Shown: in pieces, positions 1,052-38,561 of the stretch | Position numbering within the stretch: the stretch's first letter is position 1 | How the letters are laid out: every line of letters starts with the position of its first letter | Assembly (NCBI GenBank): GCA_035510735.1 | Contig: DATKGN010000002.1 | Location: 125,118-189,117 of the forward strand | Source: Patescibacteria group bacterium | GTDB taxonomy: Bacteria; Patescibacteriota; Microgenomatia; UBA10105; UBA927 | DNA: 64,000 nucleotides | Reading direction: 5' to 3' | Translations under genes and position numbers: made by a program | Notes under the pieces: model-generated | What the model saw: only the letters and a program-made list of their open reading frames with translations | Told to the model about the DNA's origin: nothing | Databases searched by the model: none

Positions 1052-1618
1052 TTATGAAAGTAATTCAGGCTGAACAGGAGCCTGTCCGTAACTATTTGAG
1101 GCAAATTTTTCGACCAATGGAGATGGTGCAGGAAATCTGTAGCCTATTCCCGATTCGTGGAGGTTAAGTTCAAAATACACTGCTCGCTCCATGAGGTCTC
1201 TTGCTTTCACTCCTCCGATTTGAATGGGTAACGTAGCGATCTCTTCACCCGACAAATGCTGAAGGCCGTCATACTTTCGAAGGAGGTCTCTCACGGTGTA
1301 CGGATCGTGAGCATCCAAAGGTACCCAGACACGCAACCAGTCTTCTTCCGGTGTTCTCGTTAAAAGTAACGTTTCACTATTCTTCTTTTGAAAACTGATG
1401 ATACCATCACTACTGAATATCTCGTGTACGGAAAGATTTTTTCTATCTAACTCATCCAGCTGTAAAACGGTGCGGATTTTTCCGGATTTGTCTTTATAAT
1501 AAATATCCAATCCCTCACGATCAAAAGTATTATTAGGAAGAGCTTCCAGTCGCTTTTCAACCTCACCTTGCCATACCCAACCAAGCACTCGGAGAAACCC
1601 TCCATCTTCATACTTCAT
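1052..1618 (-). CDS. hypothetical protein (188 aa)
   Basis: ORF without recognisable motifs; convergent with 390-1046. Confidence 0.45.
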   Translation of the reverse strand: MKYEDGGFLRVLGWVWQGEVEKRLEALPNNTFDREGLDIYYKDKSGKIRTVLQLDELDRKNLSVHEIFSSDGIISFQKKNSETLLLTRTPEEDWLRVWVPLDAHDPYTVRDLLRKYDGLQHLSGEEIATLPIQIGGVKARDLMERAVYFELNLHESGIGYRFPAPSPLVEKFASNSYGQAPVQPELLS

Positions 1619-1667
1619 AATGAGCGGAGTATAACAAAAACGTGTGATTTTGCAACGAGACCCTCCA

Positions 1668-3809: not shown

Positions 3810-3842
3810 AGATTAGAGTATACCGTATCATCCATTCGTGTA

Positions 3843-3900
3843 AACAGTTGTAAGATTTCTTACAATTGTCCTTGACAGGAAGCTGTACATTTGTTTATAT
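3843..3900 (+). promoter_or_regulatory. sigma70-like promoter preceded by an operator-like palindrome
   Basis: The near-perfect inverted repeat ACAGTTGTAAGAtTTCTTACAATTGT (3843-3868) abuts TTGACA (3872-3877), then a 17-18 nt spacer and a TATATG -10-like hexamer; lies upstream of 3907/4127. Confidence 0.45.
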
Positions 3901-3906
3901 GTCTCT

Positions 3907-4128
3907 ATGATAACGGCGCTTGTTATTCTTTATCTATTCCTTTTTCTCTCGCCCGCTCTCTCACAGGCGCACGCGTATCTGGACCCCGGCAACGGCAGTT
4001 ATATGATCCAATTACTTTTCGGCGGAGCCCTTGGCCTTATTGTCAGCGTTAAATTATTCTGGAAACAAATACACCATTTTTTTTCCCGACTCTTTCATAA
4101 AAAAACAGATGACAAAAACGAGGGTTAA
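3907..4128 (+). CDS. small membrane/secreted protein (73 aa), uncertain
   Basis: Hydrophobic N-terminus (signal-like) plus a second hydrophobic segment; it lies downstream of a TTGACA-17-TATATG-like promoter; it could alternatively be the leader of the next gene. Confidence 0.3.
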   Translation: MITALVILYLFLFLSPALSQAHAYLDPGNGSYMIQLLFGGALGLIVSVKLFWKQIHHFFSRLFHKKTDDKNEG

Positions 4129-7068: not shown

Positions 7069-7074
7069 TCCCGA

Positions 7075-23987: not shown

Positions 23988-24851
23988 TCAAGAAGTCAAA
24001 GTGGTAAGGATTTCCTCCGCGTGGGAAACGGAAATAAAATGTCCTTCCCCTGGATAAACCGTCAGCACGCTTCCCGCGATATGTGAATGGTAATACTTCC
24101 CCATGTTAAGTGATACGTTCCGGTCGTCCTCTCCGTAAAACAAAAATGCTTTTGCATGGATTGCACCGACGTCAAATCCCCAATCGGTACAATAGAGCTT
24201 AAGATCGAGCTCGGGTCCTCTGATCCCCTGCCGGAATGCCTCGCGGTAGTTTGCGAGAACCGATTCCGAAAGCTTCGGGTTCCTATACAGTTTGCGGTCT
24301 TCTTTCGCCCCGAAAAAATACTTGTGAAGCCCCAAATGGATTCCGTAATACGCATTTATATACTGAATCAACGTTGAAATTCTGCGGACAACGGGATATT
24401 TCCTATAATTCGCCCAGCCGATTTTACTCATCCACATCATGCCGTCAAGCGATTCAGGGCCGATAATGGGCGCAAGTCCGACAACAATCCCGGCTTTTGT
24501 AATCCGCTCCGGGATTTTATACGCACACACCGCAGCGTACGGCCCGCCGCCGGATTGACCCATGACGGCAAACGTCTTGATCTTCAGATGATCAGTAAGA
24601 GCGGTGACGTCGCCCGGCCAATCGAGAAGCGTCCGGTCTTTTTGGTAATCAGAATATCCGAATCCGGGCCGGTCAGGAGAAATGATGCGGATATGGAGTT
24701 TTTTGGCGAGTGCATCGTTTTTTGCCGCAAATAACCGTGACGAAGGCCAACCATGGAAAAAGAATACCGGTTTCCCTTTGAGATCGCCGTACTCGTTATA
24801 TGCGAGGTACCGCCCGTCTTTCAGCCTGCAAAGTTCAAACGCATCGTTCAT
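23988..24851 (-). CDS. alpha/beta hydrolase
   Basis: HGWPSS oxyanion motif, GQSGGG nucleophile elbow; start trimmed to MNDAFEL. Confidence 0.75.
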   Translation of the reverse strand: MNDAFELCRLKDGRYLAYNEYGDLKGKPVFFFHGWPSSRLFAAKNDALAKKLHIRIISPDRPGFGYSDYQKDRTLLDWPGDVTALTDHLKIKTFAVMGQSGGGPYAAVCAYKIPERITKAGIVVGLAPIIGPESLDGMMWMSKIGWANYRKYPVVRRISTLIQYINAYYGIHLGLHKYFFGAKEDRKLYRNPKLSESVLANYREAFRQGIRGPELDLKLYCTDWGFDVGAIHAKAFLFYGEDDRNVSLNMGKYYHSHIAGSVLTVYPGEGHFISVSHAEEILTTLTS

Positions 24852-24852
24852 A

Positions 24853-25200
24853 TTACTTTTTCTTTTTGGCCCGCAGTGCCGCTTCATATGCTGCAATCGC
24901 CCAAGGATAAATCGCCTCTGGGTTGTCGGCAACAATCCCAGGCACTTCCCAAAACGACAGCGCTACCGTTTTCCCCGTGTGGCCGGTATACATAAAGGGT
25001 TTACTCCCTTCTGCTTCGTAATCCTTCTGACTTACCGAATCGACCTTAAAGTACAACATGCCAGAGTGGATTAAGCCGATGCAAACTCCATGCCGGTAAA
25101 TCCCGTGTCCGCCGAACAGTGTCCGAACACTGATCCCGTCAACCTCACGCAGTAATTCATCCTCGACATATTCCTTAAAACTGTCATCTTTATGTGCCAT
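24853..25200 (-). CDS. TfoX N-terminal domain protein
   Basis: 115 aa, TLFGGHGIYRHGVCIGL motif typical of TfoX_N; no C-terminal TfoX domain. Confidence 0.55.
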   Translation of the reverse strand: MAHKDDSFKEYVEDELLREVDGISVRTLFGGHGIYRHGVCIGLIHSGMLYFKVDSVSQKDYEAEGSKPFMYTGHTGKTVALSFWEVPGIVADNPEAIYPWAIAAYEAALRAKKKK

Positions 25201-26064
25201 AGGTGCATTGTATCAAAGCCAAAGACTCCGGCAAGTTATATTTACTATAAGATTGATTATTACCTTATAGTAAGGTATACTTACTTTATGTTTTACGCAG
25301 AAAGAGTCGACAAACACAGCCCGCGTTATGCCATTGAATCATTTTATGATAGTGCGAAGTTGTATCTGCCTTCCGGTCTGACACCATATAAAGAAAAATA
25401 TGATTCAAATAATCAAATAGCGTTTAATTCCCCCAATGGCGATTTGGTAACCGTATATTTGGAAAAAACCCAGGGGTTAGACCAAAGACATGGCACATAT
25501 GCATATGTAGTGGCGAGAAGGAACAAACAGGATAGTGGGTTTGTTTGGATGGCATTAAAATTTCATCAACGACAACATGAACCGTTTTTCCAATCTATTC
25601 TGAACCAAGACCATTATAATAAACAATTAGGATATACCGTCTTTTCCCTTAATCGGAACAGTCATAAGGGAGAGGTAAATATGGGTATAGATTTCAACAG
25701 AAGTCCTAATCGTAATCCAAGTCTTACAAAACCTGCTCACGCAAAGCTCTATATATTTGATCTCTGGAAATATCATCGGGCAAAGTTGATAGTTACCGCA
25801 GATTCCCGTGATGAAAACTACTCCGAGTTGTTATTTGGACCTGATTCAGGCGGCTTATATGATGAAAATGGCGGTGATCTTCAGTTACCGGACACAATTC
25901 CCCAGCTCACACGGTTTCGCATATCAACTGATATGCCGCTCATAAAGGCAGCGTTTAATGAGCACATCGGCAACAAAGGAGAACCAATAAATCCATTTGT
26001 CTCTTTTCCCCAGGCGTACACAAAGATTGAGCGGTACGCGCTTAACTCTCTGAAGGCGGAATAG
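25192..26064 (+). CDS. hypothetical protein
   Basis: ORF; the real start is possibly at MFYAERVD; its 3' end overlaps the convergent ORF by 23 nt. Confidence 0.4.
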   Translation: MCHRCIVSKPKTPASYIYYKIDYYLIVRYTYFMFYAERVDKHSPRYAIESFYDSAKLYLPSGLTPYKEKYDSNNQIAFNSPNGDLVTVYLEKTQGLDQRHGTYAYVVARRNKQDSGFVWMALKFHQRQHEPFFQSILNQDHYNKQLGYTVFSLNRNSHKGEVNMGIDFNRSPNRNPSLTKPAHAKLYIFDLWKYHRAKLIVTADSRDENYSELLFGPDSGGLYDENGGDLQLPDTIPQLTRFRISTDMPLIKAAFNEHIGNKGEPINPFVSFPQAYTKIERYALNSLKAE

Positions 26065-26692
26065 CCTCTTCTTCCTTATCTTTCCTATCGTAATTAATGA
26101 AGGGAGGGTTGTAGTCAGGCATCACGGTTCTCATATTTTTAGTAAATGCGATTAAGCTGTTTTGTGACGGGCAGATGCGTTTGAGGTCGTCTGCTTTAAG
26201 CACCGCGAGCTCCGGAACCGTGTGCAGTTTCTCATCAATCATCCGATTATAGAGATAACGCCCGGGTTTAATAGTTTCCAGAGCTCTGTCGCCAAAATAC
26301 CATCTGCGCCACACGCGGACCAAAACCCAATATAACTCCTGCCGGAAGTCGCCGATCTTCGGGTCTCCGCTCGTCTGGGCTTTGATCTCTGACTCCGTCA
26401 GAAACCGTTTGTACTTCCCCTCTCCCTGCCGGTCGATAGACAAGGTTAAGATTAATACATCATGCGGGGAAAGCACCTGATCAACGGTAAATTGACCGCT
26501 CGCCTGAATTTCCGTAATGTTGTAGCGGAGCTGGTCCCGAAACGGGTGGGTAAACCGCCTATCCTTCAGTTCGTTCTTCTGTAATACGTCGTGGTCAACA
26601 TGTTCCGGCATCCACGATTTCCTGACAACCTCACGGACCTCAACGCCTGCAAACTCAGGTAACATCTGTGGATTCCCCTCCGGCAAAGTCAT
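26042..26692 (-). CDS. hypothetical protein (216 aa)
   Basis: ORF, no motif. Confidence 0.45.
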   Translation of the reverse strand: MTLPEGNPQMLPEFAGVEVREVVRKSWMPEHVDHDVLQKNELKDRRFTHPFRDQLRYNITEIQASGQFTVDQVLSPHDVLILTLSIDRQGEGKYKRFLTESEIKAQTSGDPKIGDFRQELYWVLVRVWRRWYFGDRALETIKPGRYLYNRMIDEKLHTVPELAVLKADDLKRICPSQNSLIAFTKNMRTVMPDYNPPFINYDRKDKEEEAIPPSES

Positions 26693-26813
26693 AGGAAGCT
26701 ATTGTAGTATATATACCCTCTTAATCTAAAATAGATTAACACCCGCCCGCAATTCCGATTGCGAGGGGTAGATCACGTATATACTTGATGTGTCACACCC
26801 GGTAATTTATTTA

Positions 26814-27503
26814 TTATCCTGTCACCTCTGTAACACCAAATATTTCAACACCGTCGTAACTAGTTTGAACTTGCAATATTCGGGTGCCAACCTTAATAAC
26901 AATTATCCTGGGGCCGGGTTCTTGAGATATTGAAATAATTTTGGCAGTTTCTAGCCATCCTAATTCCCGTAATTTCTCAATAACTAAAGAGTAATAATTT
27001 TCTCTTTGTGATTGATAAGTCTCCTTCTTCCGAATATCTTCAAGCCAAATAAATATAATAAACGTAGTCGATGTTAGCATTGCCCCATAACTTAACCATT
27101 GGCAAAAAATTGCGAAGTTCATGATATTAGGTTGAATAATATTTTTTGAGGAAATAATAAATATAAAAACTAAAAGTGAAGCGAAAAACAACTTTATCAA
27201 ATTTTTTAAAAATCCATAAGCAATCTTTTCAGGAGCTACGTATGGCGCCGGCTGAGTCGGATTACTATTCGTCCGTATCATAAAGAAGTTAGATTTCCAG
27301 TACGAGTAAATTGCGATTGTAATTATTGAAAAAAATAAAACGATGATATTTACTAAATTTAAATTTTCATGGTTTAGGAGCAGTGAGTTGAGCTTTAATC
27401 TGTCTGAAAAATCCACTGCGAAAAATGCAAAAACCTGTACCAAAGCGGGTGTTAAAGATATTATCGTATTAAAAATATTATTTGCAAAATCCTTGTGTTT
27501 CAT
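26814..27503 (-). CDS. hypothetical membrane protein in an AT-rich segment
   Basis: 4 TM helices plus a C-terminal soluble ~60 aa; the local sequence is visibly much more AT-rich than its flanks. Confidence 0.5.
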   Translation of the reverse strand: MKHKDFANNIFNTIISLTPALVQVFAFFAVDFSDRLKLNSLLLNHENLNLVNIIVLFFSIITIAIYSYWKSNFFMIRTNSNPTQPAPYVAPEKIAYGFLKNLIKLFFASLLVFIFIISSKNIIQPNIMNFAIFCQWLSYGAMLTSTTFIIFIWLEDIRKKETYQSQRENYYSLVIEKLRELGWLETAKIISISQEPGPRIIVIKVGTRILQVQTSYDGVEIFGVTEVTG

Positions 27504-27516
27504 AAGTTGATATCTA

Positions 27517-28032
27517 CTATTTCCACTGAAATATCGCGCCGAGGAGCGTCATCATCGGTGAAACGTTCCACCACTGGAACGACGGCGTGGTTGCAGGCTG
27601 TGGCGGCATGTACGTTGGCGTTGCGGTAACCGTTACCATTGCAGTCGGTGTCGCTGTCGGCGTAGTTATTTCGGTCGGCGCTGGGGTAAGCGTTACCGTC
27701 CCCACCTTCGCTGAAGCTTCGGTGGGTAAAGGCGTTGGCGTATAGGTTGCAATCGGCGCGTAGGCCGCAGGCGGTAGGATATATCGGGTGGGTGGAACGG
27801 TGACAACCGGCGCCTGTGTAGTAACGGTATTATTCGTGCTTCCGCCGCACATGACCATGGAAGCATACGAGCAGGATGAACCGGTCCAGCCGTCATTGCA
27901 GATCACATTGCCATTCCCCTGCGGCCCCACACCACAATTGACGCCGCTATGACCCGAACAACAGCCACTGGTTGCAAAAACAATTGAAGGAAAAAGTAAG
28001 AAAAGTGCGGGCAGGAGGAATATTTTTTTCAT
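27517..28032 (-). CDS. secreted Cys-rich protein with a Thr/Pro-rich linker
   Basis: Signal peptide MKKIFLLPALFLLFPSIVFA, then 10 Cys in ~45 aa (CCSGHSGVNCG...), a TP-rich low-complexity region and a short hydrophobic C-terminus. Confidence 0.6.
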   Translation of the reverse strand: MKKIFLLPALFLLFPSIVFATSGCCSGHSGVNCGVGPQGNGNVICNDGWTGSSCSYASMVMCGGSTNNTVTTQAPVVTVPPTRYILPPAAYAPIATYTPTPLPTEASAKVGTVTLTPAPTEITTPTATPTAMVTVTATPTYMPPQPATTPSFQWWNVSPMMTLLGAIFQWK

Positions 28033-28160
28033 ATGCCTCCCTGATCATCGGCATACTACCACAAACCGTCGGGTTTACCAATACGAAGTTACCGAAACGG
28101 AATCTGTGGCATGCAGGCCATTTTGTACTTACCCGATGTTCCTTGGTATAATGAGCGTTC

Positions 28161-28715
28161 ATGAATCCTATTGTTCCGCCTATTGCCAAATTCTTAACCG
28201 CAGGCACGATTCTTGCCGATATCGCAATCGTCGCCTACGTTATCGGGTGGCTTGTGGGATTGGCTATCAAGCCCATTACTGCGCTCCGCAATAAGGCAAT
28301 TGAGATGATCGCGCCATACGCCCGCATCCTCGGATTTCTTCTCGCTCTCTCAGCTATGGCAGGTAGCCTGTTTTACTCGGAGATCGCCAAGTATCCGCCG
28401 TGCTTCCTCTGCTGGTGGCAGCGGATTTTCATGTATCCGCAGGTGCTTCTTATCGCCATGGGGATAATGAAGGATGACAAGAAAGTTGCTGATTACACGA
28501 TCGCCATGTCTATTATCGGTTTTGTCATTTCCGTCTACCAATATTACATCCAGATGGGCGGAGGCCAGCTTTTCCAATGCGATCTCAATGGCGGCGTCTC
28601 CTGCACCCAGCATTTCCCCTTGGAATTCGGCTACGTGACGCTGCCCATGATGGGCCTGACGGCTTTTGCGGGGCTCATTATCCTTATGTGGATTTCAAAA
28701 AAGCACGCGAAGTAA
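28161..28715 (+). CDS. disulfide bond formation protein B (DsbB/BdbC family)
   Basis: 4 TM helices, CFLCWWQRIFMYP first Cys pair and a second Cys pair CDLNGGVSC in the second periplasmic loop. Confidence 0.7.
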   Translation: MNPIVPPIAKFLTAGTILADIAIVAYVIGWLVGLAIKPITALRNKAIEMIAPYARILGFLLALSAMAGSLFYSEIAKYPPCFLCWWQRIFMYPQVLLIAMGIMKDDKKVADYTIAMSIIGFVISVYQYYIQMGGGQLFQCDLNGGVSCTQHFPLEFGYVTLPMMGLTAFAGLIILMWISKKHAK

Positions 28716-28716
28716 G

Positions 28717-29862
28717 TTATTTCTTCTTTGATCTCACCATTTGTACCATCCCGCCTAAACCCCAGATGACAGCGAGAAATCCGACGATCCCGCCGACAAA
28801 CGGCGCCTTAAACATGAACCAGAGGACGGGCACCCCGACGGCAATCTGAAGGAATGTGTTATCTTTCGTTTTCGCTTTGAAACTATCGAGTATATACCAC
28901 CCGACCCAGAGGGCGACAAACAGGCGGCTTATGGCAATCGCGATAATGTAAAGTAAAACAAGAAGTAACGCAAACGGGATTCCAATAATGGTCACAGCGA
29001 GAATGACGGCAACCACGGGAACGACCATAAGATACACAAACCCCTTCAGCGCTACGGCTATAGGATCTTCCTTCATGACGGTGAATATCTTCTGCGTGAC
29101 TGCCGGCATAAACTTGAGCATAAGAAGACCTACAACGAGAAAAAATAAAATAGACGGAATTGCATTGGCCGGCCAGGGATTGGGAGCGGGCTTTGCGGCA
29201 GCCTGCTGTTTATTCTGCTTCGCAGTAGGCTCATTGGTGACCATCCCGAGAATGGATGCGCTCTTCGGTACAACCACTTTCGTATCGCTCACATAGTGAA
29301 GATTTCCGTACACTTTTGCGGAATCTCCCAAAATAAGTGAACTGGTCTCTACATCAACATTTCCGTGAACTTTCCCGTTAATACCGATCGTTTCCCCGTA
29401 CCCGCCGAGCGATTTTCCGATAATGCCGTTCTGTGTCAGTGTCTGTGCGGCAACAAATAACTCACCCGATACAGAGCTTGCTTGCGATTGGGTAAGCGTT
29501 TGTCCGAATGCGGTAACATTCCGTTTTACCGGTCCTTCGATAGTGATCGTTTGACCGGCGAGTCGTAGATTTCCGTCAACAACTCCACTCACCCGAAGCA
29601 TTTGAGCTGCACAGATGACATCGCCCTCAACAGTCCCTGATATGGTCACATCGTTTCCTGCACAATAGACGTCACCGTGTACGACTCCGTCCACTTTCAC
29701 CGATTTGGCACCAATAAAAAGAGATCCATCAATGACCTGATCTCGGCTTACGTCTACCATCTCCCCGCTTTCGACTTCAAATGCGTGCGCCGCTGGAACC
29801 ACGCGGAATGCGGCAAATAAAATGGTTATGGCAAGTATAAACCGAACAAACTTCATATTCAT
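28717..29862 (-). CDS. signal-peptide protein with a bactofilin-like beta-helix repeat domain and a C-terminal 4-TM domain
   Basis: Repeats of G-x-V-x-G-D/N-V (VDGVVHGDVYCAGNDVTISGTVEGDVICAA...) after the signal peptide; multi-TM C-terminus; 12-nt gap to the upstream ATPase gene. Confidence 0.55.
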   Translation of the reverse strand: MNMKFVRFILAITILFAAFRVVPAAHAFEVESGEMVDVSRDQVIDGSLFIGAKSVKVDGVVHGDVYCAGNDVTISGTVEGDVICAAQMLRVSGVVDGNLRLAGQTITIEGPVKRNVTAFGQTLTQSQASSVSGELFVAAQTLTQNGIIGKSLGGYGETIGINGKVHGNVDVETSSLILGDSAKVYGNLHYVSDTKVVVPKSASILGMVTNEPTAKQNKQQAAAKPAPNPWPANAIPSILFFLVVGLLMLKFMPAVTQKIFTVMKEDPIAVALKGFVYLMVVPVVAVILAVTIIGIPFALLLVLLYIIAIAISRLFVALWVGWYILDSFKAKTKDNTFLQIAVGVPVLWFMFKAPFVGGIVGFLAVIWGLGGMVQMVRSKKK

Positions 29863-29874
29863 ACTATATCATAA

Positions 29875-31665
29875 TTATCGGCTGGCACGAAGCGCATTAA
29901 ATATGACGCTCACATCAATAGCTTCCTGGATAAATGCACCCAAAAGCGGTGGAATCATGCCGAGCGCCGCCAAAATCATCCCGATGATGCTTAAGCCGAT
30001 ACCGACCCAAATACTCTGAAGCGCAATTGCGATTGTCCGCCGTGCAATCGTGAGCGATTCAAGGACGACCGAAAAGCTTCCGCCCAAAAACACGAGGTCA
30101 GCCGCCTCGGAGGCCGCCGTTTGCTCCTCATTACTGAAAACCATTCCGACGTCGGCGGACGCTAGAGCGGGCGCATCGTTAATCCCGTCCCCGACCATAG
30201 CCGTCACCCGTCCAAGCTGACGCAAATGCTTAATACCGTTCATCTTATCCTGAGGTGTGCATTCCGTTTTTATATCGATATCTAATCCGAGCGATTTGAC
30301 AACCTCCTGGGCTGTTTCTTTTTTGTCCCCGGTAAATATGGATAAATGAAGTCCCCAGGCATGAAGTTGTGAGAGAATTTTACGCGACTCCGGCTTAATC
30401 CGGTCCTCAAACTGGATAACGGCGATACGCCTCCGGCCCTCCCGGAGTTCAATACCGTATCCAACTGATTCTTTCACCTTTGAAAGGACATAGTGATGGT
30501 TGTCGATGGTGCCGAGTATTCCGTAGCCTATTTTTTCAGACACGCCGCGCGCGACCAAATGCTTCACCGTGCGGCTCCTTGCTTCCATAACGATAGCTTT
30601 TGCAAACGGATGTAAACTATTGCGTTCTATGGCTTCGCTCATTGCCAGTATCTGATTCTCCGTATACTTCTTATTCTTGATGATGACCCCGGATACCTGC
30701 GGTTTACCCAGCGTAATCGTCCCCGTCTTATCAAACATAATATCGGTTACCCGCGAAAGCGTCTCGATACTTGAAAGGGTTTTGACAATCACTTTACGCC
30801 GCGCGAGCGCATTCATGCCGCCGATAAGAGCAATCGGCGTTGCAAGAATAAGCGGACACGGGGTGGCGATGACGAGAACAGCAAGGACATGGTGGATATT
30901 ACCTGAAACGAGATAGGCCGCTCCGGCAAGCAAAAGGGTAACTAGGGTAAAAATACTGCTGTAGCGGTCGGCAATGCGGACAAGCGGCGATTGTGCTTCT
31001 TGCGCCTGACGCACCATATCAATAATTTTCCGGTACGTGGAATCTTTATCAGACTGGGTAACGCGGACAATCATAGGCCGCCTGATATTGATCGTGCCGC
31101 TACGAATCTGATCACCAAGAAGTTTCTCCATTTCGTAGGGTTCTCCTGTTAGCGATGATTCATCCGCCATGCCGTCCTCACTGACGAGAATGCCATCAAG
31201 CGGAATGACCTCACCTTTCCGGACGAAAATCTGCTCCCCTACCGCAACCTCGCTGATTTTTACCTTTTTTCCGATGTCATTATCCTTCCAAAGCAAAACA
31301 CTATCGGGAATCCGGCTGGTGAGAGCCGTCAGTGATTTTTTGGCCCGGGAAACCGCATATTTCTCAAGCGCCTCTCCGCCCGCAAGCATGAGGACGATAA
31401 CGGCAGCAACTAAAAATTCACCGGAAATAAGACCGGTCGTGATCGCAAGAAGAGCGATGTAATCAAGAGCAAACTGCCTATGTATGAGTGCAACGATAGC
31501 GTCACGCACCTGATCGATGCACCCGAAGAGGATAGCGACAACAATAACCGCATCGGCGAAAAACCAGTTATGAAACCCATACAGAAGAATAAGATACGCA
31601 ATAATACCCAGTACTTCAATTGCGGGCAATAAAAACAGGGTAATAAATTGTCTATACCGTTTCAT
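29875..31665 (-). CDS. P1B-type (PCP-motif, P1B-5-like) metal-translocating P-type ATPase
   Basis: DKTGTIT, TGDKKETA, GDGINDAPAL; TM6 ATPCPLILATP (a PCP rather than CPC motif); no N-terminal metal-binding domain; start moved to MKRYRQ (the 130-codon upstream extension looks non-coding). Confidence 0.8.
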   Translation of the reverse strand: MKRYRQFITLFLLPAIEVLGIIAYLILLYGFHNWFFADAVIVVAILFGCIDQVRDAIVALIHRQFALDYIALLAITTGLISGEFLVAAVIVLMLAGGEALEKYAVSRAKKSLTALTSRIPDSVLLWKDNDIGKKVKISEVAVGEQIFVRKGEVIPLDGILVSEDGMADESSLTGEPYEMEKLLGDQIRSGTINIRRPMIVRVTQSDKDSTYRKIIDMVRQAQEAQSPLVRIADRYSSIFTLVTLLLAGAAYLVSGNIHHVLAVLVIATPCPLILATPIALIGGMNALARRKVIVKTLSSIETLSRVTDIMFDKTGTITLGKPQVSGVIIKNKKYTENQILAMSEAIERNSLHPFAKAIVMEARSRTVKHLVARGVSEKIGYGILGTIDNHHYVLSKVKESVGYGIELREGRRRIAVIQFEDRIKPESRKILSQLHAWGLHLSIFTGDKKETAQEVVKSLGLDIDIKTECTPQDKMNGIKHLRQLGRVTAMVGDGINDAPALASADVGMVFSNEEQTAASEAADLVFLGGSFSVVLESLTIARRTIAIALQSIWVGIGLSIIGMILAALGMIPPLLGAFIQEAIDVSVIFNALRASR

Positions 31666-31774
31666 AGAAATCTTCCCTAGTATAGAATTGACGCCGCGCG
31701 TTGTCCATACACACCAGGAGCGCACCCGCACCGAATTGACAAGACTTTGATCTCGTGGAACAATACAAGTACAT

Positions 31775-32173
31775 ATGTTTCGAAATAAGAATGTATGGCT
31801 TTTGGGAAGCGTAGGACTTATTGTTATTGCGATCGGACTCGTTGCGATTCTTGATAGAACGAGCTCCCCGGGTAATTCTCCAAATGATGTACGAGCCAGG
31901 GCCGCCACCGCAAATACGCTCCAGTTCAACGGTACAGTGAGCGTTGTCAATGAAACCAAAGGAACAGTCGTTATTTCCGATTTATATTTTGCAAGCGTCA
32001 GCCGTTCGGGCGATGCGACGAATCTGGGGACATGGACCGTGACGGCGCCGCCCAATTTTGATTACACAACAATTTCGCAGGGAGCAAATGTTGTGGTAGG
32101 CATTGACGCAAAAACATTTCTTGCAACATCGCATACGTTGACGGCAATTACGCTTGTCCCCGGTACAAGATAA
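31775..32173 (+). CDS. hypothetical N-terminally anchored protein (132 aa)
   Basis: Single N-terminal TM helix then a Thr/Val-rich beta-like domain; divergent from the ATPase. Confidence 0.4.
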   Translation: MFRNKNVWLLGSVGLIVIAIGLVAILDRTSSPGNSPNDVRARAATANTLQFNGTVSVVNETKGTVVISDLYFASVSRSGDATNLGTWTVTAPPNFDYTTISQGANVVVGIDAKTFLATSHTLTAITLVPGTR

Positions 32174-32179
32174 TCTTCA

Positions 32180-34438
32180 TTATCCGAACGGAAAGTTATC
32201 CCCAGATTGAACAACCTTTTCGCGGCCGTTCCGTATAAGATGAACCATCCCAACGCCTAATACTTGAGACTCGTGCCGGGTCACATCGACGACGCATGCT
32301 GTTTGTTCATCAATCCCCAGTATCGTCATCCCGCCGGGCAACAGACTAACAAGCTTCTCAAACCGGCTGACCCCCATATAGCAGCGCGTCGTATCAAAGT
32401 CCTCCCCCTCCTGATTATTCCAGTGCGGGATAATGACCACGTTGGGAATCCATTGTTTAAACAGATTTATTCCCGCTATCCAATGCAGCTCCTCCCCTAC
32501 TTTAAATATTTCATAGACGGGAAGGACCTGCGCGCCCACGGCCATCGCGGTAGCTGACCCCAGACAGACGGTCATTCCGGTTTGAAACGCTTTTTCAATA
32601 TTGTGAGCCGCGCGCGAACCCTTGAGGTGCTTTACCGTATAACCGGGAGAACCGGCCCCGCAGTAGAGATAGTCTTCATGGAGAATTGAATCCACAGTTG
32701 CAGGATCATTTGTAGAATTTTGGCCGTCACAACGCCATGCACGAATTCTCGTAATCTCAGGCTTTATATTGATGAGTTTCGTCTTGAAAAATTGCTCCAT
32801 CCGCTCGGGCCACCCGTGAATCGCATTCACTTCAAAGCCTGTCGGTGTTTCAAGGATGCCGATCTTCACTCCGGCCGTTAATCCAGCCTGCTTTATTACC
32901 GTCTCATGAATTTTTCTTCCGGTCGGAGACATCTCGCCGGAGCCAAATAGGACAATTAGACCTGGTTCCCCGCGACGGAGTTTATCCTGAGCATTGCCGA
33001 AGGACTCGGGGTGAAAAATTGATTTGTTTGTCAATTTTTCATTTTTTTTTACGCGGATTCCTTGTGGAGTATCTTCAATGACGTACCCTTTGTCTTCAAT
33101 TTCGCGGCGGACGGCATCGGCATCGGCAAACCGTTTTTCCTTGCGAAGTGCTTCGCGCTTTGCCAATAAATCAGAAATTTCCTTTGGCACCGCAACTTCT
33201 TCGCTTTTGGCACTGGCAAGATCAAGTCCTAATACGCCATCGAATGATATGAGCAAATCATACCGCTCTTTTGGACTTAAGGATTGTGCCCGTATAACCT
33301 CCCAAACCACTGCAAGAGCTCTGGGAATATTTAAATTATCTTCGAGTGTTTCTTTGAATTTTTGTACGAATTCCTGCCGCAGCGGCGTCTGGTCTTTTGA
33401 TGCAAAAGATTCGCTTCTTAAGGCTGCGACAGCACTAATCAGTTCGTGTCGTGCGTTTTTGGACGCATCAAGCGCTGTCCAGGTGAAGTTGAGAAATGCC
33501 CGGTAATGTGCAGTCAGATAGAGATACCTAAGGTCTAACGGATCGTAACCCTTAGATTCAATATCTGCTAACCGGTAAAAATTCCCTTTGCTTTTGGCCA
33601 TCTTGGCGCCGTCAACCATGATGAATTGCCCGTGCACCCAATACCGCACAAACGGAGATTTGCCGGAAGCGGCTTCCGACTGGGCAATCTCATTGGTATT
33701 ATGAATGGGAATAAGATCAGCGCCGCCGGTGTGGATGTCGATCTGATCGCCTAAATGCTTTTTACTCATCGCGGAACATTCGATATGCCAGCCGGGAAAT
33801 CCCACACCCCACGGGCTCTCCCACTCCATATCCCGTTTCGGTCCTTTCGGGGAAAATTTCCAAAGGGCGAAATCGGTCGGATTCTTCTTCTGCGGATTTG
33901 GTTCTACGCGTGCGCCTTCCTTAAGTTCATCAAGGCTTTGACCCGTTAATTTTCCGTAGTCTTTAAATTTACTGGTGTCGAAATAGATCCCGTCATCAAT
34001 CTTGTAGGCGAATCCTTTAGAAAGGAGCATTTCTACCATAGCGATTTGCTCGGCAATGTGTTCGGTCGGCTTCGGCCGGACATCCGGGTCCAGGAGATTC
34101 AACTTCTTACTGTCCGCCAAAAACGCATCGGTGTAAAATCTCGCGATGTCCCACGCGGTTTTCCCCTCACGTTTGGCGCCCTTTTCCATCTTATCTTCAC
34201 CGCTATCGGAATCGGAAACAAGGTGGCCGACATCGGTAATATTGGAAACGTATTTAACCGGATACCCCAGGTATTTAATCGTCCGTACCAGAAGATCCGA
34301 CATTGTATACGTCCGGAAGTTGCCGATATGCGCATAGTCATACACCGTCGGGCCGCAGCAATAGACCGTTACCAATTTCGGATCTCTTGGAGTAAATGTT
34401 TCAACTTTTTTCCCTAATGTATTGAAGAGTCTGAGCAT
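32180..34438 (-). CDS. cysS: cysteinyl-tRNA synthetase fused to a ~290-aa C-terminal domain (peptidase S51/GATase1-like?)
   Basis: VYCCGPTVYDYAHIGN (HIGH), KMAKSKGN (KMSKS), Cys ligands; the CysRS core ends at about aa 465; the extension has GSGE and CLGSATAMA motifs. Confidence 0.85.
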   Translation of the reverse strand: MLRLFNTLGKKVETFTPRDPKLVTVYCCGPTVYDYAHIGNFRTYTMSDLLVRTIKYLGYPVKYVSNITDVGHLVSDSDSGEDKMEKGAKREGKTAWDIARFYTDAFLADSKKLNLLDPDVRPKPTEHIAEQIAMVEMLLSKGFAYKIDDGIYFDTSKFKDYGKLTGQSLDELKEGARVEPNPQKKNPTDFALWKFSPKGPKRDMEWESPWGVGFPGWHIECSAMSKKHLGDQIDIHTGGADLIPIHNTNEIAQSEAASGKSPFVRYWVHGQFIMVDGAKMAKSKGNFYRLADIESKGYDPLDLRYLYLTAHYRAFLNFTWTALDASKNARHELISAVAALRSESFASKDQTPLRQEFVQKFKETLEDNLNIPRALAVVWEVIRAQSLSPKERYDLLISFDGVLGLDLASAKSEEVAVPKEISDLLAKREALRKEKRFADADAVRREIEDKGYVIEDTPQGIRVKKNEKLTNKSIFHPESFGNAQDKLRRGEPGLIVLFGSGEMSPTGRKIHETVIKQAGLTAGVKIGILETPTGFEVNAIHGWPERMEQFFKTKLINIKPEITRIRAWRCDGQNSTNDPATVDSILHEDYLYCGAGSPGYTVKHLKGSRAAHNIEKAFQTGMTVCLGSATAMAVGAQVLPVYEIFKVGEELHWIAGINLFKQWIPNVVIIPHWNNQEGEDFDTTRCYMGVSRFEKLVSLLPGGMTILGIDEQTACVVDVTRHESQVLGVGMVHLIRNGREKVVQSGDNFPFG

Positions 34439-34453
34439 GGAGTAAGCTTACTA

Positions 34454-35356
34454 TTAAATCTTCAACTTTTCAACGCCGATGCCGGCCGCAATAATAAGTA
34501 GTCCGCCAAAAATCTGGATAAGCGTGAGTGACTCCCCGAGAAACGAAAACGCCAATACCGACACGATAACCGGCGTCAATGAAAAAATCATGGTAACAAA
34601 TGACGCGGACGACTCCTTAAGCGCCCGGTAACGGAACGTCGTAATAAGAATTTGACATATCGTTAGGGCAATGATGAGCGGGATCCCTGACGGGATGACC
34701 AAGGCATGTTGCCACCACGTGACGATGAGAAGCGGAATGAATCCCAACAGCGTGCTTACCGACGCTGCAACATCACTGTGAACAATTTTCGCAGCTATTC
34801 GGCCCAACACATTATTTCCCAAACTGATAAGCAATGCCTCAGTAATGGTGAGTATGTCGCCGGTTGATAGAGACAGTACACGTCCTTTTGTGGTAAGAAA
34901 ATACGACCCGACAAGTATAACGACTGCAAGAATAATTTTCTTTTTCGTTAACGGTTCCTTAAGGAAAATATATGCTTCAAGAATGGTAAAAAGTATAACC
35001 GTCCGAATGAGAAATGAATAATTTACGGCAGGACTGTATGTCAACGCATAAACTTCCGTAATAGTGACGCCGACAGAACTCACAAGAGCAATACCCAACA
35101 AAACTCCCCACGCTTTTGCATTCAACGATCTAATATCCCGTCTAAATTGAAACGCCTTTATCATCCAATACGGCAACTCAAATATTGAAGCCCAAATAGC
35201 GACGGTCAGCGTGAGATTTGACGTTTGGTGTAAAAGAATCCGTTCGAGAATAATCGCGATTGCCCAAACGATTGCTGCAATTGTGGCGTACCGGAATCCT
35301 GAGCTCATATACTTATAATGTAACCGCCTTCGGTAATGAGTAATTAAATTGTTCAA
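34454..35356 (-). CDS. EamA/DMT-family transporter
   Basis: 10 TM helices in two 5-TM halves. Confidence 0.65.
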   Translation of the reverse strand: MNNLITHYRRRLHYKYMSSGFRYATIAAIVWAIAIILERILLHQTSNLTLTVAIWASIFELPYWMIKAFQFRRDIRSLNAKAWGVLLGIALVSSVGVTITEVYALTYSPAVNYSFLIRTVILFTILEAYIFLKEPLTKKKIILAVVILVGSYFLTTKGRVLSLSTGDILTITEALLISLGNNVLGRIAAKIVHSDVAASVSTLLGFIPLLIVTWWQHALVIPSGIPLIIALTICQILITTFRYRALKESSASFVTMIFSLTPVIVSVLAFSFLGESLTLIQIFGGLLIIAAGIGVEKLKI

Positions 35357-37136
35357 TACTCTTCCATTGGTCCGTTGTTATGTGTGGTATTTTATTGTTT
35401 TTTATATACAGACAGGACGGCGCATTATCGTGATCGAGCCGAACGTAAAGATACGCTAATTGAGGCGGCATCGTGGTAAATTCGTTCGATTTCCCCCAGC
35501 ACCGGCCGTAAAAAAAGACCGGAGGATCCTTTTTGAGCATTTCATCGCGCGCTTTTGTATACACCGTAAAATACGGCATGAGCGATGTATACCAGCTGTA
35601 CGGGTAATCGGAATACCTGCCAGCCTGCCAGTAAATAAGATCATCCTGACCGTCAAGGAATAGGGTGTCAGCGGGATTGGATAATAACCGTACCGTTTCT
35701 CCGACGACATAATATTGATTGTAATTTGTCGTGAACTCCGTTTGCCGGTCAACCTGTTCATGAAGATAGGATGCGGGCGACACAAGCGCATATACCGATA
35801 ATCCCAAAAATACCGCCCCGCCGATAAGAGAAATCCATCGTACATTTCTGTACTGCCATACTTTTACCAACAGGCTCAGAACGGTGAATATGACCAGCGC
35901 ATACCACTCTATATGATGAAACGTGCCGTAATAGAGACTTCCGGGGATAATCGTCCTAATGTTTGCGAGTGTTAACACAGCAAGCGCAATAATGACGCCT
36001 GATATATTTTTCGATTTCACCAATACCAAAATTCCAAATAAAATAAGTAATGCCATGAGGCCTGCTTCCACCTCACGAAATAGATTCCAATTCCCTTCAT
36101 AAAATACCTGCAGTGGATATAAAAAAACACTCCACGTTCCCCCGCTTTGAGCAGCAACCTGCGTGGCTTCGATAGTGATGTTATGTTCATTAACCGTAAA
36201 CACGTTAAACATAAAATCGTTTATGCCAAAGTACGTAACAGAAGCGAGTGACATAAGAAAAAGAAGTATTCCCGACCACCAAATCCAGACAGTTTTTCTC
36301 ATAAACCAGAGCATTACGGCAAATAGCATAAGAACGAGCGGAATATACGGTTCGCGGGTAAATACGACAAACCATGTAAATATGGTTGCGAGAAATACTT
36401 CGAAGGGTGACACGCGCTTCTTTTGCAAAAATTCCCACACAAGACCCCACAAATACACGACCGGGTAGACGATGATGGGCTCGGCCAAAAACCGGTCGCC
36501 GAAAATAAACCCTTTTGTCGATTCAAAGAGAATGGCAAATCCGAATCCGACAACGCCAAACCGTAGTGTGAGGAAGATGTCAGCAATAATGGACAGATAA
36601 ATCATAAACATCCGGTGCTGGTAAATAAGCATGTAGATGGAATCCGGTTTCGTCAGGTGCTGGATAAGGGCGCTTATGTAGGCCATCGACGGCATGTGGT
36701 TAAAGAAAATTTCAGAGAACATCTTTTTGCCGTGAAGGAGGAAATACCCGCCCATCATGTTATTGCAGTCGTCGAAACACCCGAATGCACCGATCCGGTC
36801 GCGGTAAATTGAACGAAGATATATCCATAACGGGATGAGGAGAAAAACGAAAAGCAATCTTAGGGAGAAGCGCTTTGGTCGCTGCGCCTTTTGTGCGCAT
36901 CCGTCAGTGCTTGAGTCGCGGGTGACGCGGGACGGAGGGCCTCCACCGGCCGGGGTCCCCTTCGTGGGTGGCCGTGGAGGAAAACCCGCGGCAGGACCCG
37001 CACTCTGATCTTGCGCAGTGACGGTGCTGACAAAACGTGCAGCTCCCCGCGCTTCTCTGTTCTTTTGATTATTCTGAATATTAATCCTGTCTAACGTTGC
37101 GGTTTTCCGTCGCGGTTTGTTTGGCTTTTTTGCCAT
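35313..37136 (-). CDS. large polytopic membrane protein with a basic low-complexity N-terminal tail
   Basis: More than 10 TM helices plus a C-terminal soluble domain; start chosen at MAKKPNKPRRK; the ORF-track extension overlaps the upstream gene. Confidence 0.5.
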   Translation of the reverse strand: MAKKPNKPRRKTATLDRINIQNNQKNREARGAARFVSTVTAQDQSAGPAAGFPPRPPTKGTPAGGGPPSRVTRDSSTDGCAQKAQRPKRFSLRLLFVFLLIPLWIYLRSIYRDRIGAFGCFDDCNNMMGGYFLLHGKKMFSEIFFNHMPSMAYISALIQHLTKPDSIYMLIYQHRMFMIYLSIIADIFLTLRFGVVGFGFAILFESTKGFIFGDRFLAEPIIVYPVVYLWGLVWEFLQKKRVSPFEVFLATIFTWFVVFTREPYIPLVLMLFAVMLWFMRKTVWIWWSGILLFLMSLASVTYFGINDFMFNVFTVNEHNITIEATQVAAQSGGTWSVFLYPLQVFYEGNWNLFREVEAGLMALLILFGILVLVKSKNISGVIIALAVLTLANIRTIIPGSLYYGTFHHIEWYALVIFTVLSLLVKVWQYRNVRWISLIGGAVFLGLSVYALVSPASYLHEQVDRQTEFTTNYNQYYVVGETVRLLSNPADTLFLDGQDDLIYWQAGRYSDYPYSWYTSLMPYFTVYTKARDEMLKKDPPVFFYGRCWGKSNEFTTMPPQLAYLYVRLDHDNAPSCLYIKNNKIPHITTDQWKSIEQFNYSLPKAVTL

Positions 37137-37587
37137 ACAGATCTCCTCGCGGGCGCTTACTTGTGGCCATCGGCAGCGATTGAGCCGACTGCTGCGCCTG
37201 ATTTTGGGCAAGCACGTTTTTTTTCTGTTCCTGCTCCTGCTGTAGTCGTTCCCAGATGGACGGCTCTTTCTTCTTTGCGATGGCGCCGCTTGTGAGCTCC
37301 TCAAGAGCCCGACGCGCCATATGGCGCTTCACTGCCTGGTCATTTTCCCCGTCAATCTGCTCCCAGGCTGTAGCCGGCTTTCCACCCTCTCCGGGAGTCC
37401 CTGACGTCACGACCGTTTGTCCTTTGGAATTTTTCGAACTTGAAGTTCCGAGGCTTTCGAGCGCCTTCCCTGCAATATCTTTGGGAACTTTTGCAACCTC
37501 CGTGCCGATCTGTTTGCCGATCTGACCGAGCTCAGAGATTATTGATCCGCCGATATTGCCGCTGTCTGCCATAATTCCTCTTGTCAC
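37081..37587 (-). CDS. hypothetical low-complexity (G/Q/K-rich) protein
   Basis: ORF; coiled/low-complexity composition. Confidence 0.4.
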   Translation of the reverse strand: MTRGIMADSGNIGGSIISELGQIGKQIGTEVAKVPKDIAGKALESLGTSSSKNSKGQTVVTSGTPGEGGKPATAWEQIDGENDQAVKRHMARRALEELTSGAIAKKKEPSIWERLQQEQEQKKNVLAQNQAQQSAQSLPMATSKRPRGDLYGKKAKQTATENRNVRQD

Positions 37588-37590
37588 AAC

Positions 37591-37893
37591 TTAGGAAAAC
37601 CCGAGCTGCATTTTCGCCTCTTCACTCATTGTATCAGGTGTCCACGGCGGATCAAAGGTAAGTTCTACCTCAACTTTCTTCACTCCCTTGATGGCACCGA
37701 CCGTATCTTTAATAGGCTCAGCTATCTGATCAAAGAGCGGGCATCCGAGGGTCGTTAAAGTCATCACAACTCTGACATTACCCTTTTTATCAATTTCAAT
37801 TCTATAAATGAGCCCGAGCTGTAAAATGGAAACTCCGATCTCAGGATCCGGAATTTTGTCTAGCACAGACTCGACCTGTTTTTTCGTTACCAT
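37591..37893 (-). CDS. DUF59/MIP18-family Fe-S cluster assembly protein
   Basis: 100 aa, conserved Cys in TLTTLGCPLFDQI. Confidence 0.65.
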   Translation of the reverse strand: MVTKKQVESVLDKIPDPEIGVSILQLGLIYRIEIDKKGNVRVVMTLTTLGCPLFDQIAEPIKDTVGAIKGVKKVEVELTFDPPWTPDTMSEEAKMQLGFS

Positions 37894-37895
37894 AG

Positions 37896-38561
37896 TTAAT
37901 ATTCCGTACGGCCTTCAAGCGCACGGCGCAGCGTCACTTCATCGGCATATTCAATGTCTGCTCCGACCGGAAGCCCGTGGGCTAGGCGCGTCACTTTAAT
38001 TTTATGGTTATTATTGTTACTTGTTACTTTGTTAATTTGTTTATGTATGTACATTGCCGTTGCCTCCCCCTCCATATTGGGGTTCATGGCTAAGATAACC
38101 TCGGCAACTTTTGATGAATCTGCGGCCACCCGCTTTACCAAATCCTCAATATAGATCTCATCCGGACCGATATTATTTAAAGGATCTATGGCGCCGTGAA
38201 GCACGTGATAGACACCGTTAAAGTGCCCGGTCCGTTCAATGGAGAGGACATCACTCGGACTCTCGACGACACAAATAATCGTATGATCGCGCGACGGATT
38301 ATCGCAGATGATGCACGGATCCTGTTCGGCAACGTTCTTACAAATGCCGCAGAGAATCGTATCTTTTTTTAGGCCCGATAAACTTTTGGCGAATAAGTCG
38401 AGGTCTTCCTGCGGAACGTGAAGAAGATAAAACGCAAGCCGCTGGGCGGTTTTTGGTCCTACGCCCGGCAGACGCTCAAACGACTCAATAACCCGCGAAA
38501 CCGCTTTCGGAAGAATTGCCATCTTGTTATTTGTCATCGCGAATCCCGATACGATCGGCAT
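37896..38561 (-). CDS. recR: recombination protein RecR
   Basis: HhH LPGVGPKTAQRLAFYLL, C4 zinc finger CGICKNV...CIICDN, Toprim domain. Confidence 0.9.
   Translation of the reverse strand: MPIVSGFAMTNNKMAILPKAVSRVIESFERLPGVGPKTAQRLAFYLLHVPQEDLDLFAKSLSGLKKDTILCGICKNVAEQDPCIICDNPSRDHTIICVVESPSDVLSIERTGHFNGVYHVLHGAIDPLNNIGPDEIYIEDLVKRVAADSSKVAEVILAMNPNMEGEATAMYIHKQINKVTSNNNNHKIKVTRLAHGLPVGADIEYADEVTLRRALEGRTEY

Follow-up and report, generated by a model that had tools for sequence, protein, structure and literature searches.

Two neighbouring minus-strand genes of a Patescibacteria contig, one encoding a P1B-5-type pump and the other a halofilin B (HalB)-type protein, are most probably functionally independent and adjacent through the local gene order of a single Patescibacteria (Microgenomates-like) lineage. 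Both are further members of known families that lie side by side. The original prediction had cast the second protein as a possible periplasmic partner or metallochaperone-like component of the first; a comparison of about 150 loci (n = 80 at the species level for the HalB-like gene and n = 76 for the ATPase) and the HalB architecture of the protein speak against that role.

The window, i.e. the whole stretch of DNA that was analysed, is 64,000 nucleotides long. Within it, the ATPase gene (29875..31665, minus strand; 596 aa) was recognised as encoding a P1B-5-type (PCP) heavy-metal P-type ATPase from TIGR01525, Pfam, motifs and a tree, and the HalB-like gene (28717..29862, minus strand; 381 aa; Pfam Bactofilin + DUF8173) from Pfam, hhalign and its architecture. 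The HalB-like gene is downstream of the ATPase gene on the same strand, and the gap from the ATPase stop to the HalB-like start, read from the sequence, is exactly 12 nt (29863..29874, minus strand), as had been noted. In this spacer, Shine-Dalgarno-like sequence, terminator-like sites and promoter-like sites are all absent; just upstream of the ATPase start lies a sigma-70-like promoter match (TGGACA-17-TATACT, 31679..31707, minus strand; 10/12 positions, a consensus match only). Co-transcription, which had been asserted outright, is plausible on this layout. In locus L161, the closest relative (ATPase identity 69%), both genes lie on one strand and overlap, and in the lineage of the window and L161 they probably form one transcript.

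Convergent with the HalB-like gene is a gene for a DsbB-family disulfide oxidoreductase (28161..28715, plus strand), which matches Pfam DsbB (2e-12) and NCBIfam NF002849 (1.2e-32, under the curated cut-off of NF002849). A second secreted protein, rich in cysteine, is encoded on the far side of this DsbB-like gene. Paralogues of the ATPase or HalB-like gene elsewhere in the window, and Rfam matches and tRNAs anywhere within it, were not found.

The ATPase among P1B subgroups

By its sequence, the ATPase is a P1B-5 member and an ordinary one for the PCP class. As predicted, all P-type motifs are present (TGE173, DKTGT312, H352-P353, TGD445 and GDGINDAP492), with the DKTGT phosphorylation motif located by motif search at residues 312-316 (30718..30732, minus strand). 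The protein matches E1-E2_ATPase and Hydrolase in Pfam, scores 451.5 bits against TIGR01525 (cut-off 346) and is 100% identical to a protein (P0121) named ‘heavy metal translocating P-type ATPase [Patescibacteria group bacterium]’.

Alignment locates the P1B-5 signature of the intramembrane metal site in the M4 helix (TM6) as VIATPCPLILATP (residues 265-277; 30835..30873, minus strand). This signature includes T268-P-C-P271, confirming the earlier reading of TPCPL in place of CPC, and its core, ATPCPLILA, is identical in Nia of Sinorhizobium meliloti; the PCP motif is the defining feature of P1B-5 (PMC13460109). M6 carries QEAID (Q580-E-A-I-D584; 29914..29928, minus strand; alignment and direct reading), common to Nia and the whole PCP clade, where the SPC type has HE(G/V)x and the ZntA type DxG. 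The aligned metal-site residues of M4, M5 and M6 are the same as in Nia and the PCP clade; the M5 and M6 signatures (QS..G..LS; QExxD...NALRA) come from our own alignment with Nia. TPCP is present in 120/120 of the nearest ATPase homologues and QExxD in 119/120.

Phylogenetic placement, which had been suggested as a check, puts the ATPase with Nia and not with CopA or ZntA. A neighbour-joining (NJ) tree of 25 sequences (586 columns), small and not maximum-likelihood, unites the window ATPase and its Patescibacteria homologues with Nia and three further PCP-type ATPases in a clade with a bootstrap of 100, apart from the ZntA, CadA, CopA and SPC types. BLASTP gives Nia 362 bits, as opposed to 197-248 bits for the ZntA, CadA, CopA, SilP and SPC types. 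The best plasmid-borne relative is encoded at S. meliloti pSymA 637601-639316, which we take to be nia (SMa1163) on account of its pSymA position, PCP motif and C-terminal tail of ~190 aa.

It is improbable that the protein is instead an exporter of Zn2+/Cd2+ (P1B-2-like) or Co2+ (P1B-4-like). The Cd family model TIGR01512 does score 414 bits against it (cut-off 313.5), and three homologues (P0159, P0168 and P0180) have been automatically named ‘cadmium-translocating P-type ATPase’; however, the ATPase has neither a CPC nor an SPC motif, its M6 reads QEAID and not DxG or HEGx, the bootstrap of 100 splits it from the ZntA, CadA and SPC types, and Nia outscores these by about 115-165 bits.

The ATPase ends five residues past NALRA, without a C-terminal domain and hence without a hemerythrin domain, and an N-terminal metal-binding domain is missing as well. 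A C-terminal extension or hemerythrin tail was found in 0/120 of the nearest homologues, and its absence is therefore normal for the Patescibacteria/DPANN clade. The PCP-type ATPases of Agrobacterium, Pseudosulfitobacter and E. raffinosus also lack the hemerythrin domain, which occurs in some P1B-5 ATPases only and is not obligatory (PMC9388753). The original prediction was therefore right about the absence of this domain, though not in calling it usual.

As a P1B-5 pump, the ATPase would most likely run the usual Post-Albers cycle, in which D312 is phosphorylated and the TGE loop removes the phosphate, and would most likely move a divalent transition metal out of the cytoplasm. Its metal site would consist of the M4 Cys of TPCP together with the Gln, Glu and Asp of QEAID in M6. 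The pump has neither soluble metal-binding nor hemerythrin regulatory domains, and the same holds for the whole Patescibacteria/DPANN clade to which it belongs. The P1B-5 substrate had been described as unknown, but Nia is tied to Ni2+/Fe2+ (PMC4932525; PMC13460109); by analogy with Nia, the best candidate for the substrate of the window ATPase is Fe2+ or Ni2+.

The HalB-like protein

The downstream protein begins with a predicted Sec signal peptide (residues 1-27; 29782..29862, minus strand), recognisable from K4, R7, a hydrophobic core and A-H-A before F28; the region is modelled as a helix (residues 3-20) and kept across 33 homologues, and cleavage would be expected before F28. An extracytoplasmic bactofilin-like beta-helix follows (residues 28-211; 29230..29781, minus strand), predicted from the AlphaFold model, profile comparison and Foldseek, with ~9 regular strands recurring every 17 residues and two short terminal strands. 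A K/Q/P/A-rich linker modelled at low confidence (residues 212-233; 29164..29229, minus strand; pLDDT 61-66) leads to the DUF8173 membrane domain (28717..29163, minus strand; AlphaFold model and sequence). For this domain, predicted earlier to have four transmembrane (TM) helices, the model has five long helices (234-251, 267-290, 294-327, 336-351 and 356-378) and one short helix (253-265). Its Lys-rich loops and C-terminal RSKKK would be cytoplasmic, given the signal peptide and the positive-inside rule. The model has a pLDDT of 92, with block means of 92-98 over residues 31-210.

The signal peptide and the bactofilin-like beta-helix of the original prediction are thus borne out by sequence, Pfam and model. 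Pfam Bactofilin scores 41.9 bits (cut-off 27.9), the beta-helix has a profile match to the bactofilin 6ria (E 4.4e-5), and Foldseek aligns the model with 6rib (probability 0.99, TM 0.63) as a local bactofilin match; a full-length significant match was not found by Foldseek against the PDB. The alternative of a DUF4097/LiaG-like fold, which had been put forward alongside bactofilin for checking, was rejected: a Pfam scan at E<=5 returned only Bactofilin and weak matches to Sensor and FapA.

Homologues of the protein bear PF26514/DUF8173, and no mention of DUF8173 or PF26514 was found in the literature. The Bactofilin+DUF8173 family is stand-alone and very large: at E<=1e-30 it comprises 9,022 representatives. 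Membership in the HalB family was assessed by proxy, with haloarchaeal proteins that share the architecture of HVO_1237 standing in for it. In hhalign, the protein matches a Halobaculum marinum protein with a probability of 99.7% (E 2e-26) and a 7-sequence haloarchaeal Bactofilin+DUF8173 alignment that includes Haloferax sp. with a probability of 100% (E 8.6e-41), and the homology spans both domains (Halobaculum, Haloferax sp. and Halorubrum proteins). Judged by sequence, model and these proxies for HVO_1237, the protein is a Bactofilin+DUF8173 member of the HalB-type (halofilin B) family. Its Sec signal peptide would direct export of the beta-helix, which a flexible linker and the five-helix membrane domain would then anchor on the outside of the membrane, and by analogy with Haloferax HalB it is probably a surface polymer that serves as an envelope scaffold.

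Pairing across genomes and the conserved cysteines

Using an alignment of 10 closer sequences as the query for HalB-like loci, we found an ATPase within 8 kb of the HalB-like gene in 2/80 loci (L004 and L007), where it is 3.3 kb away and never adjacent; 74/80 of these loci have at least 1.8 kb of upstream sequence. When the search started from the ATPase, a HalB-like gene within 4 kb turned up in 0/76 loci. The co-occurrence analysis, on which the proposed partnership had been made to depend beforehand, thus finds that the partner is not kept next to PCP-type ATPases.

Outside the window, the two genes are adjacent in L161 only. In L158 (68% ATPase identity), an opposite-strand histidine phosphatase gene lies between them; in L159 (58% ATPase identity), the order is reversed and eight genes intervene. 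Several near relatives have the two genes no more than about 5 kb apart, in varying arrangements. The syntenic locus L002 (Gottesmanbacteria) keeps the block CysRS / 131-aa gene / HalB-like / DsbB, and a 387-aa membrane-protein gene occupies the ATPase slot. Neighbours that recur by the HalB-like gene reflect housekeeping synteny only (Elp3-like, PGM/PMM, GlyA, FolD and TrpRS), and those recurring by the ATPase are a ~186-aa 2-TM protein, a histidine phosphatase, ComF-like, NUDIX and SmpB; the search of related loci turned up no functional neighbour conserved beside the ATPase or the HalB-like gene.

Two cysteines of the exported beta-helix, Cys67 and Cys84, are exactly 17 residues (one strand repeat) apart, each within a GDVxCA motif. 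Both motifs are present in 115/120 HalB-like homologues, both are missing in three and one only is missing in two; haloarchaeal and Firmicute homologues lack both cysteines. Placed by the model on neighbouring strand repeats, the pair could conceivably coordinate a soft metal. The exported domain contains just 2 Cys, 3 His and 3 Met, and sequence inspection revealed no metal-binding motif in it.

These residues invite a reading in which the ATPase and the HalB-like gene form a lineage-specific functional pair, the Cys-bearing beta-helix receiving or buffering the exported metal at the outer membrane face, as in the partner role of the original prediction. The shared strand, the 12-nt gap without a terminator, the overlap of the genes in L161 and the presence of two near-invariant cysteines predicted to be extracytoplasmic speak for such a pair. 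We nevertheless regard it as very unlikely: the pairing is unconserved from either side (2/80; 0/76), another gene takes the ATPase slot in L002, the Cys pair occurs in 115/120 homologues, yet nearly all sampled loci lack a nearby ATPase, the exported domain has few Cys, His and Met residues and no metal-binding motif, and the family match is to HalB, a structural polymer. The fuller version, in which pump and beta-helix make up one transcription unit in a narrow lineage with Cys67/Cys84 as an extracytoplasmic metal acceptor or buffer, is more improbable still; if true, it would amount to a novel form of hand-off from pump to scaffold. The HalB-like protein is probably not a metal-binding partner.

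A tentative alternative, which we hold to be possible but doubtful, links the HalB-like protein to the convergent DsbB-like gene: DsbB would drive the oxidation of Cys67 and Cys84 to a disulfide, which would tie two adjacent turns of the exported beta-helix together, with the ATPase a bystander. DsbB adjoins the HalB-like gene in the window, L161, L002 and L158, the 17-residue spacing equals one strand repeat, the Cys motifs are lost together in three homologues and singly in two (n = 120), and the second Cys-rich secreted protein lies beyond DsbB. Against this, the remaining 75 HalB-like loci have no DsbB homologue within 8 kb, DsbB adjoins the ATPase and not the HalB-like gene in L004 and L007, and the cysteines are missing from the haloarchaeal and Firmicute homologues. 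Such a disulfide would be compatible with the independence of the ATPase and HalB-like genes, and would refine that explanation.

The reading of two independent genes guards against labelling Bactofilin+DUF8173, a very large and uncharacterised-looking family, as metal-related through guilt by association, and Bactofilin+DUF8173 in Patescibacteria is now tied to the experimentally studied surface bactofilin HalB. A short, domain-less P1B-5-type pump, often automatically named ‘cadmium-translocating’, is common across Patescibacteria and also found in some DPANN archaea. Separately from the issue of pairing, the retention of a surface bactofilin in ultra-small episymbiotic bacteria may interest those studying envelope biology.

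Comparison with known systems

With 38% identity across 589 aligned positions, the P1B-5 ATPase Nia (SMa1163) of S. meliloti is the best-scoring characterised relative of the window ATPase; besides the M4 core, the two share M5 QS..G..LS and M6 QEAIDxxxIxNALRA. [quoted passage not shown] ZntA/CadA (P1B-2), CopA/SilP (P1B-1) and the SPC type (P1B-4) have the P1B core in common with it at 27-31% identity, but carry CPC or SPC in M4, other M6 ligands and N-terminal metal-binding domains, and fall into separate clades.

HalB (HVO_1237) of Haloferax volcanii (Curtis et al., PNAS 2024), the topology of which was validated experimentally, has a Sec signal peptide, an extracellular N-terminal bactofilin domain, an unstructured linker and five TM helices, with a short sixth helix parallel to the inner leaflet; its family also occurs in bacteria, candidate phyla among them, where the windings number up to 10 (PMC11459167). 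The window protein is predicted to have the same succession of signal peptide, bactofilin domain, linker and five helices with a short in-plane helix. HalB has 5 strand repeats, whereas the window protein has about 9-11; the disordered C-terminal tail of HalB is missing from the window protein, and the two conserved cysteines belong to the Patescibacteria subfamily only. Polymerisation and a role in cell shape are based on HalB and would extend to bacterial members by analogy only. The canonical cytoplasmic bactofilins (TtBac, 6RIA/6RIB; BacA, 2N3D) resemble the window protein in the sequence and fold of their beta-helix repeat, but form cytoplasmic polymers, with ~6 windings, that are either soluble or bound peripherally to the membrane, whereas the window protein is predicted to be exported and to have an integral membrane domain as its anchor.

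The ATPase and its class

The ATPase (window 29875–31665, minus strand; 596 aa) matches the Pfam families E1-E2_ATPase and Hydrolase as well as TIGR01525 (451 bits), the NCBIfam model for heavy-metal P1B enzymes, and it has the complete set of catalytic motifs (TGE173, DKTGT312, H352-P353, TGD445, and GDGINDAP492). Its M4 helix is VIATPCPLILATP, and its last helix, IQEAIDVSVIFNALRASR, runs up to the stop codon. When 72,556 plasmids were searched by tblastn, Sinorhizobium pSymA 637601–639316 was among the top-scoring matches. The record is unannotated there; from the pSymA position, the PCP motif, and the C-terminal tail, we take this open reading frame (ORF) to be nia (SMa1163), which encodes the characterized P1B-5 member Nia. 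It contains VIATPCPLILAVP and LLQEAIDIVAILNALRAL, the latter followed by ~190 further residues, where the hemerythrin-like domain is expected.

The reference ATPases were ZntA and CopA of Escherichia coli and, from plasmids, CadA, SilP, two SPC-type, three further CPC-type, and three further PCP-type proteins. Compared with the window ATPase by BLASTP, Nia scored highest (362 bits), followed by the other three PCP-type proteins (301–343 bits) and all CPC-, SPC-, and CopA-type proteins (197–248 bits). In a neighbour-joining (NJ) tree (586 trimmed columns, 100 bootstraps), the ATPase, ten Patescibacteria/DPANN homologues, Nia, and the other three PCP-type proteins form one clade (support 100) apart from the SPC, ZntA/CadA, and CopA/SilP groups, and the alignment contains clade-specific residues in M4, M5, and M6. 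Together, the scores, the clade shared with Nia, and these residues support placement in P1B-5, upholding the original prediction of a P1B-5-like rather than a canonical CopA/ZntA enzyme. The first motif position varies within the PCP clade, since a 598-aa member encoded within 1348–3225 of an Enterococcus raffinosus megaplasmid (L166) has SPCP instead of TPCP (M4, ASPCPLILA).

The 120 nearest homologues (505–622 aa; from Patescibacteria, Saccharimonadia, Roizmanbacteria, Dojkabacteria, and Woesearchaeota) all have TPCP, and 119 have QExxD. Because none of the 120 has a C-terminal extension, the short, hemerythrin-less form is the norm for the Patescibacteria/DPANN clade. The ATPase had been described as lacking its usual hemerythrin-like domain; the absence stands, but ‘usual’ does not, as only some P1B-5 members have the domain (PMC9388753). 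Nor is the substrate simply unknown, as had been stated: through Nia, P1B-5 has been connected with Ni2+/Fe2+ in reviews (PMC4932525, PMC13460109). On a Pseudosulfitobacter plasmid (L165), a hemerythrin-less PCP-type ATPase gene annotated as cadA (1315–3222) shares 4 nt with the VIT-family (vacuolar iron transporter-like) gene that follows it (3219–3920), a single case that hints at iron handling by PCP-type pumps. Three PCP-type homologues of the window ATPase (P0159, P0168, and P0180) are named ‘cadmium-translocating P-type ATPase’ in public records, probably because TIGR01512 scores exceed the cut-off of that model; the name is likely over-specific.

Layout and conservation of the gene pair

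Exactly 12 nt, TTATGATATAGT, separate the ATPase stop codon from the ATG of the downstream HalB-like gene (28717–29862, minus strand; 381 aa), so that ORF coordinates and spacer length match the same-strand arrangement originally reported. The spacer contains no Shine-Dalgarno-like sequence. Since a consensus scan placed a promoter-like site at 31679–31707, directly ahead of the ATPase start, and found neither a promoter-like nor a terminator-like site between the genes, we infer that a single transcript is plausible. Deposited Patescibacteria group bacterium MAG proteins, named ‘heavy metal translocating P-type ATPase’ and ‘polymer-forming cytoskeletal protein’, are 100% identical to the two proteins. 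No tRNA genes or Rfam families at threshold were found anywhere in window 1–64000.

The HalB-like protein had been proposed as a periplasmic partner of the ATPase, but the pairing is not conserved. Among 80 HalB-like loci from a one-genome-per-species collection (74 of them extending 1.8 kb or more upstream of the gene), only L004 and L007 have a PCP-type ATPase within 8 kb, 3.3 kb upstream and with several genes between. From the ATPase side, a HalB-like gene lies within 4 kb in none of 76 metagenome loci (at least 1.2 kb downstream in 48; most relatives 48–74% identical, a few distant P1B ATPases 26–32%). For each of the two genes, the recurrent neighbours are housekeeping genes of the kind usual in Patescibacteria synteny.

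In close relatives, the arrangement is lost step by step. L161 (ATPase identity 69%) keeps the window order of CysRS, then ATPase, HalB-like gene, and DsbB; in L158 (68%), an opposite-strand histidine-phosphatase gene separates the pair; in L004 and L007 (62–64%), the pair is 3.3 kb apart and DsbB adjoins the ATPase gene; and in L159 (58%), eight genes intervene and the HalB-like gene lies 4.7 kb upstream. Gottesmanbacteria L002 (HalB-like protein 49% identical) has no ATPase within 8 kb: CysRS, a 131-aa gene, the HalB-like gene, and DsbB are kept, and a 387-aa membrane-protein gene occupies the ATPase slot. Absence of the partner beside PCP-type ATPases had been set beforehand as the result that would refute a partnership, and this result was obtained. 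A partnership is thus not supported; the two proteins are further members of families already known, P1B-5 and HalB.

Several observations concern these neighbourhoods. The commonest neighbour of the ATPase clade is a gene for a ~186-aa protein that has two transmembrane (TM) helices and weakly matches DUF5673. It lies downstream in 21 of 73 loci (L082–L157; e.g. L143 2425–2985), shares the ATPase strand in 19 of these 21, and is absent from the compared 14-kb window stretch 24000–38000. The cysteinyl-tRNA synthetase (CysRS; 32180–34438, minus strand; 752 aa) has a ~290-aa C-terminal extension weakly similar to Peptidase_S51 (cyanophycinase/dipeptidase E-like); in L002 the two parts are separate, overlapping ORFs (4027–5454, 475 aa; 5451–6272, 273 aa); either the genes have fused, or assembly or a frameshift accounts for the difference. 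Patescibacteria-type gene order and genes, including those for HalB-like protein, PCP-ATPase, and DsbB, occur in many species-representative MAG records (L003–L007, L016, L019, L020, and others) under the title ‘uncultured Gammaproteobacteria bacterium’, and the organism labels of these records look unreliable.

The HalB-like protein and its cysteines

The HalB-like protein matches Pfam Bactofilin (41.9 bits; cut-off 27.9) and has no Pfam match to DUF4097, confirming the predicted bactofilin-like beta-helix; its homologues have a precomputed match to PF26514 (DUF8173). An AlphaFold model from a 33-sequence alignment (mean pLDDT 92) comprises an N-terminal helix (residues 3–20), a beta-helix with a strand every 17 residues (28–211), a low-confidence linker (212–233), and a membrane domain of five long helices and one short (234–251, 253–265 [short], 267–290, 294–327, 336–351, and 356–378), replacing the four TM helices first proposed. 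Ahead of F28, the N-terminus has K/R residues, a hydrophobic core, and AHA, and the membrane domain has Lys-rich loops and a C-terminal RSKKK; from these features we infer that the beta-helix lies outside the cell.

C67 and C84 (29610–29663, minus strand) belong to GDVxCA motifs spaced by exactly one strand repeat (17 residues). Both motifs occur in 115 of 120 aligned homologues, one in two, and neither in three; the cysteines are absent from the haloarchaeal and Firmicute (Desemzia) members examined, and the pair is a signature of the Patescibacteria subfamily. A disulfide between neighbouring beta-helix turns is a reasonable guess for this candidate pair. A DsbB-family gene (28161–28715, plus strand) adjoins the HalB-like gene in the window, L161, L002, and L158; in the window its other flank is a gene (27517–28032, minus strand) for a 171-aa secreted protein that is Cys-rich in its N-terminal half and Thr/Pro-rich in the middle and has a hydrophobic tail at its C-terminus. 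These three genes may form a small neighbourhood for extracytoplasmic disulfide formation.

Comparison with halofilin B

The HalB-like family is very large: at E ≤ 1e-30, an exhaustive profile search yielded 9,022 representatives at the 50%-identity level. In Desemzia sp. (L174), a Cys-less HalB-like gene (6001–7188) precedes a same-strand undecaprenyl-diphosphatase (BacA/UppP) gene (7386–8207), a cell-envelope context. Homology was assessed with haloarchaeal proteins of the HalB build other than Haloferax volcanii halofilin B (HalB; HVO_1237) itself: against the Patescibacteria profile, a Halobaculum marinum (Haloferacaceae) plasmid protein aligned over 330 columns and both domains (probability 99.7%, E 2e-26), and a seven-sequence alignment (Haloferax sp., Halobaculum, and Halorubrum; six sequences with both Bactofilin and DUF8173) reached a probability of 100% (E 8.6e-41). 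The HalB cluster comprises 2,304 proteins, 1,813 of them bacterial, candidate phyla included, with up to 10 windings (PMC11459167). The window protein has the same architecture as HalB of Haloferax volcanii, in which an extracellular bactofilin domain follows a Sec signal peptide and is joined by an unstructured linker to five TM helices and a sixth, short one running parallel to the inner leaflet, a topology that was confirmed experimentally (Curtis et al., PNAS 2024, PMC11459167).
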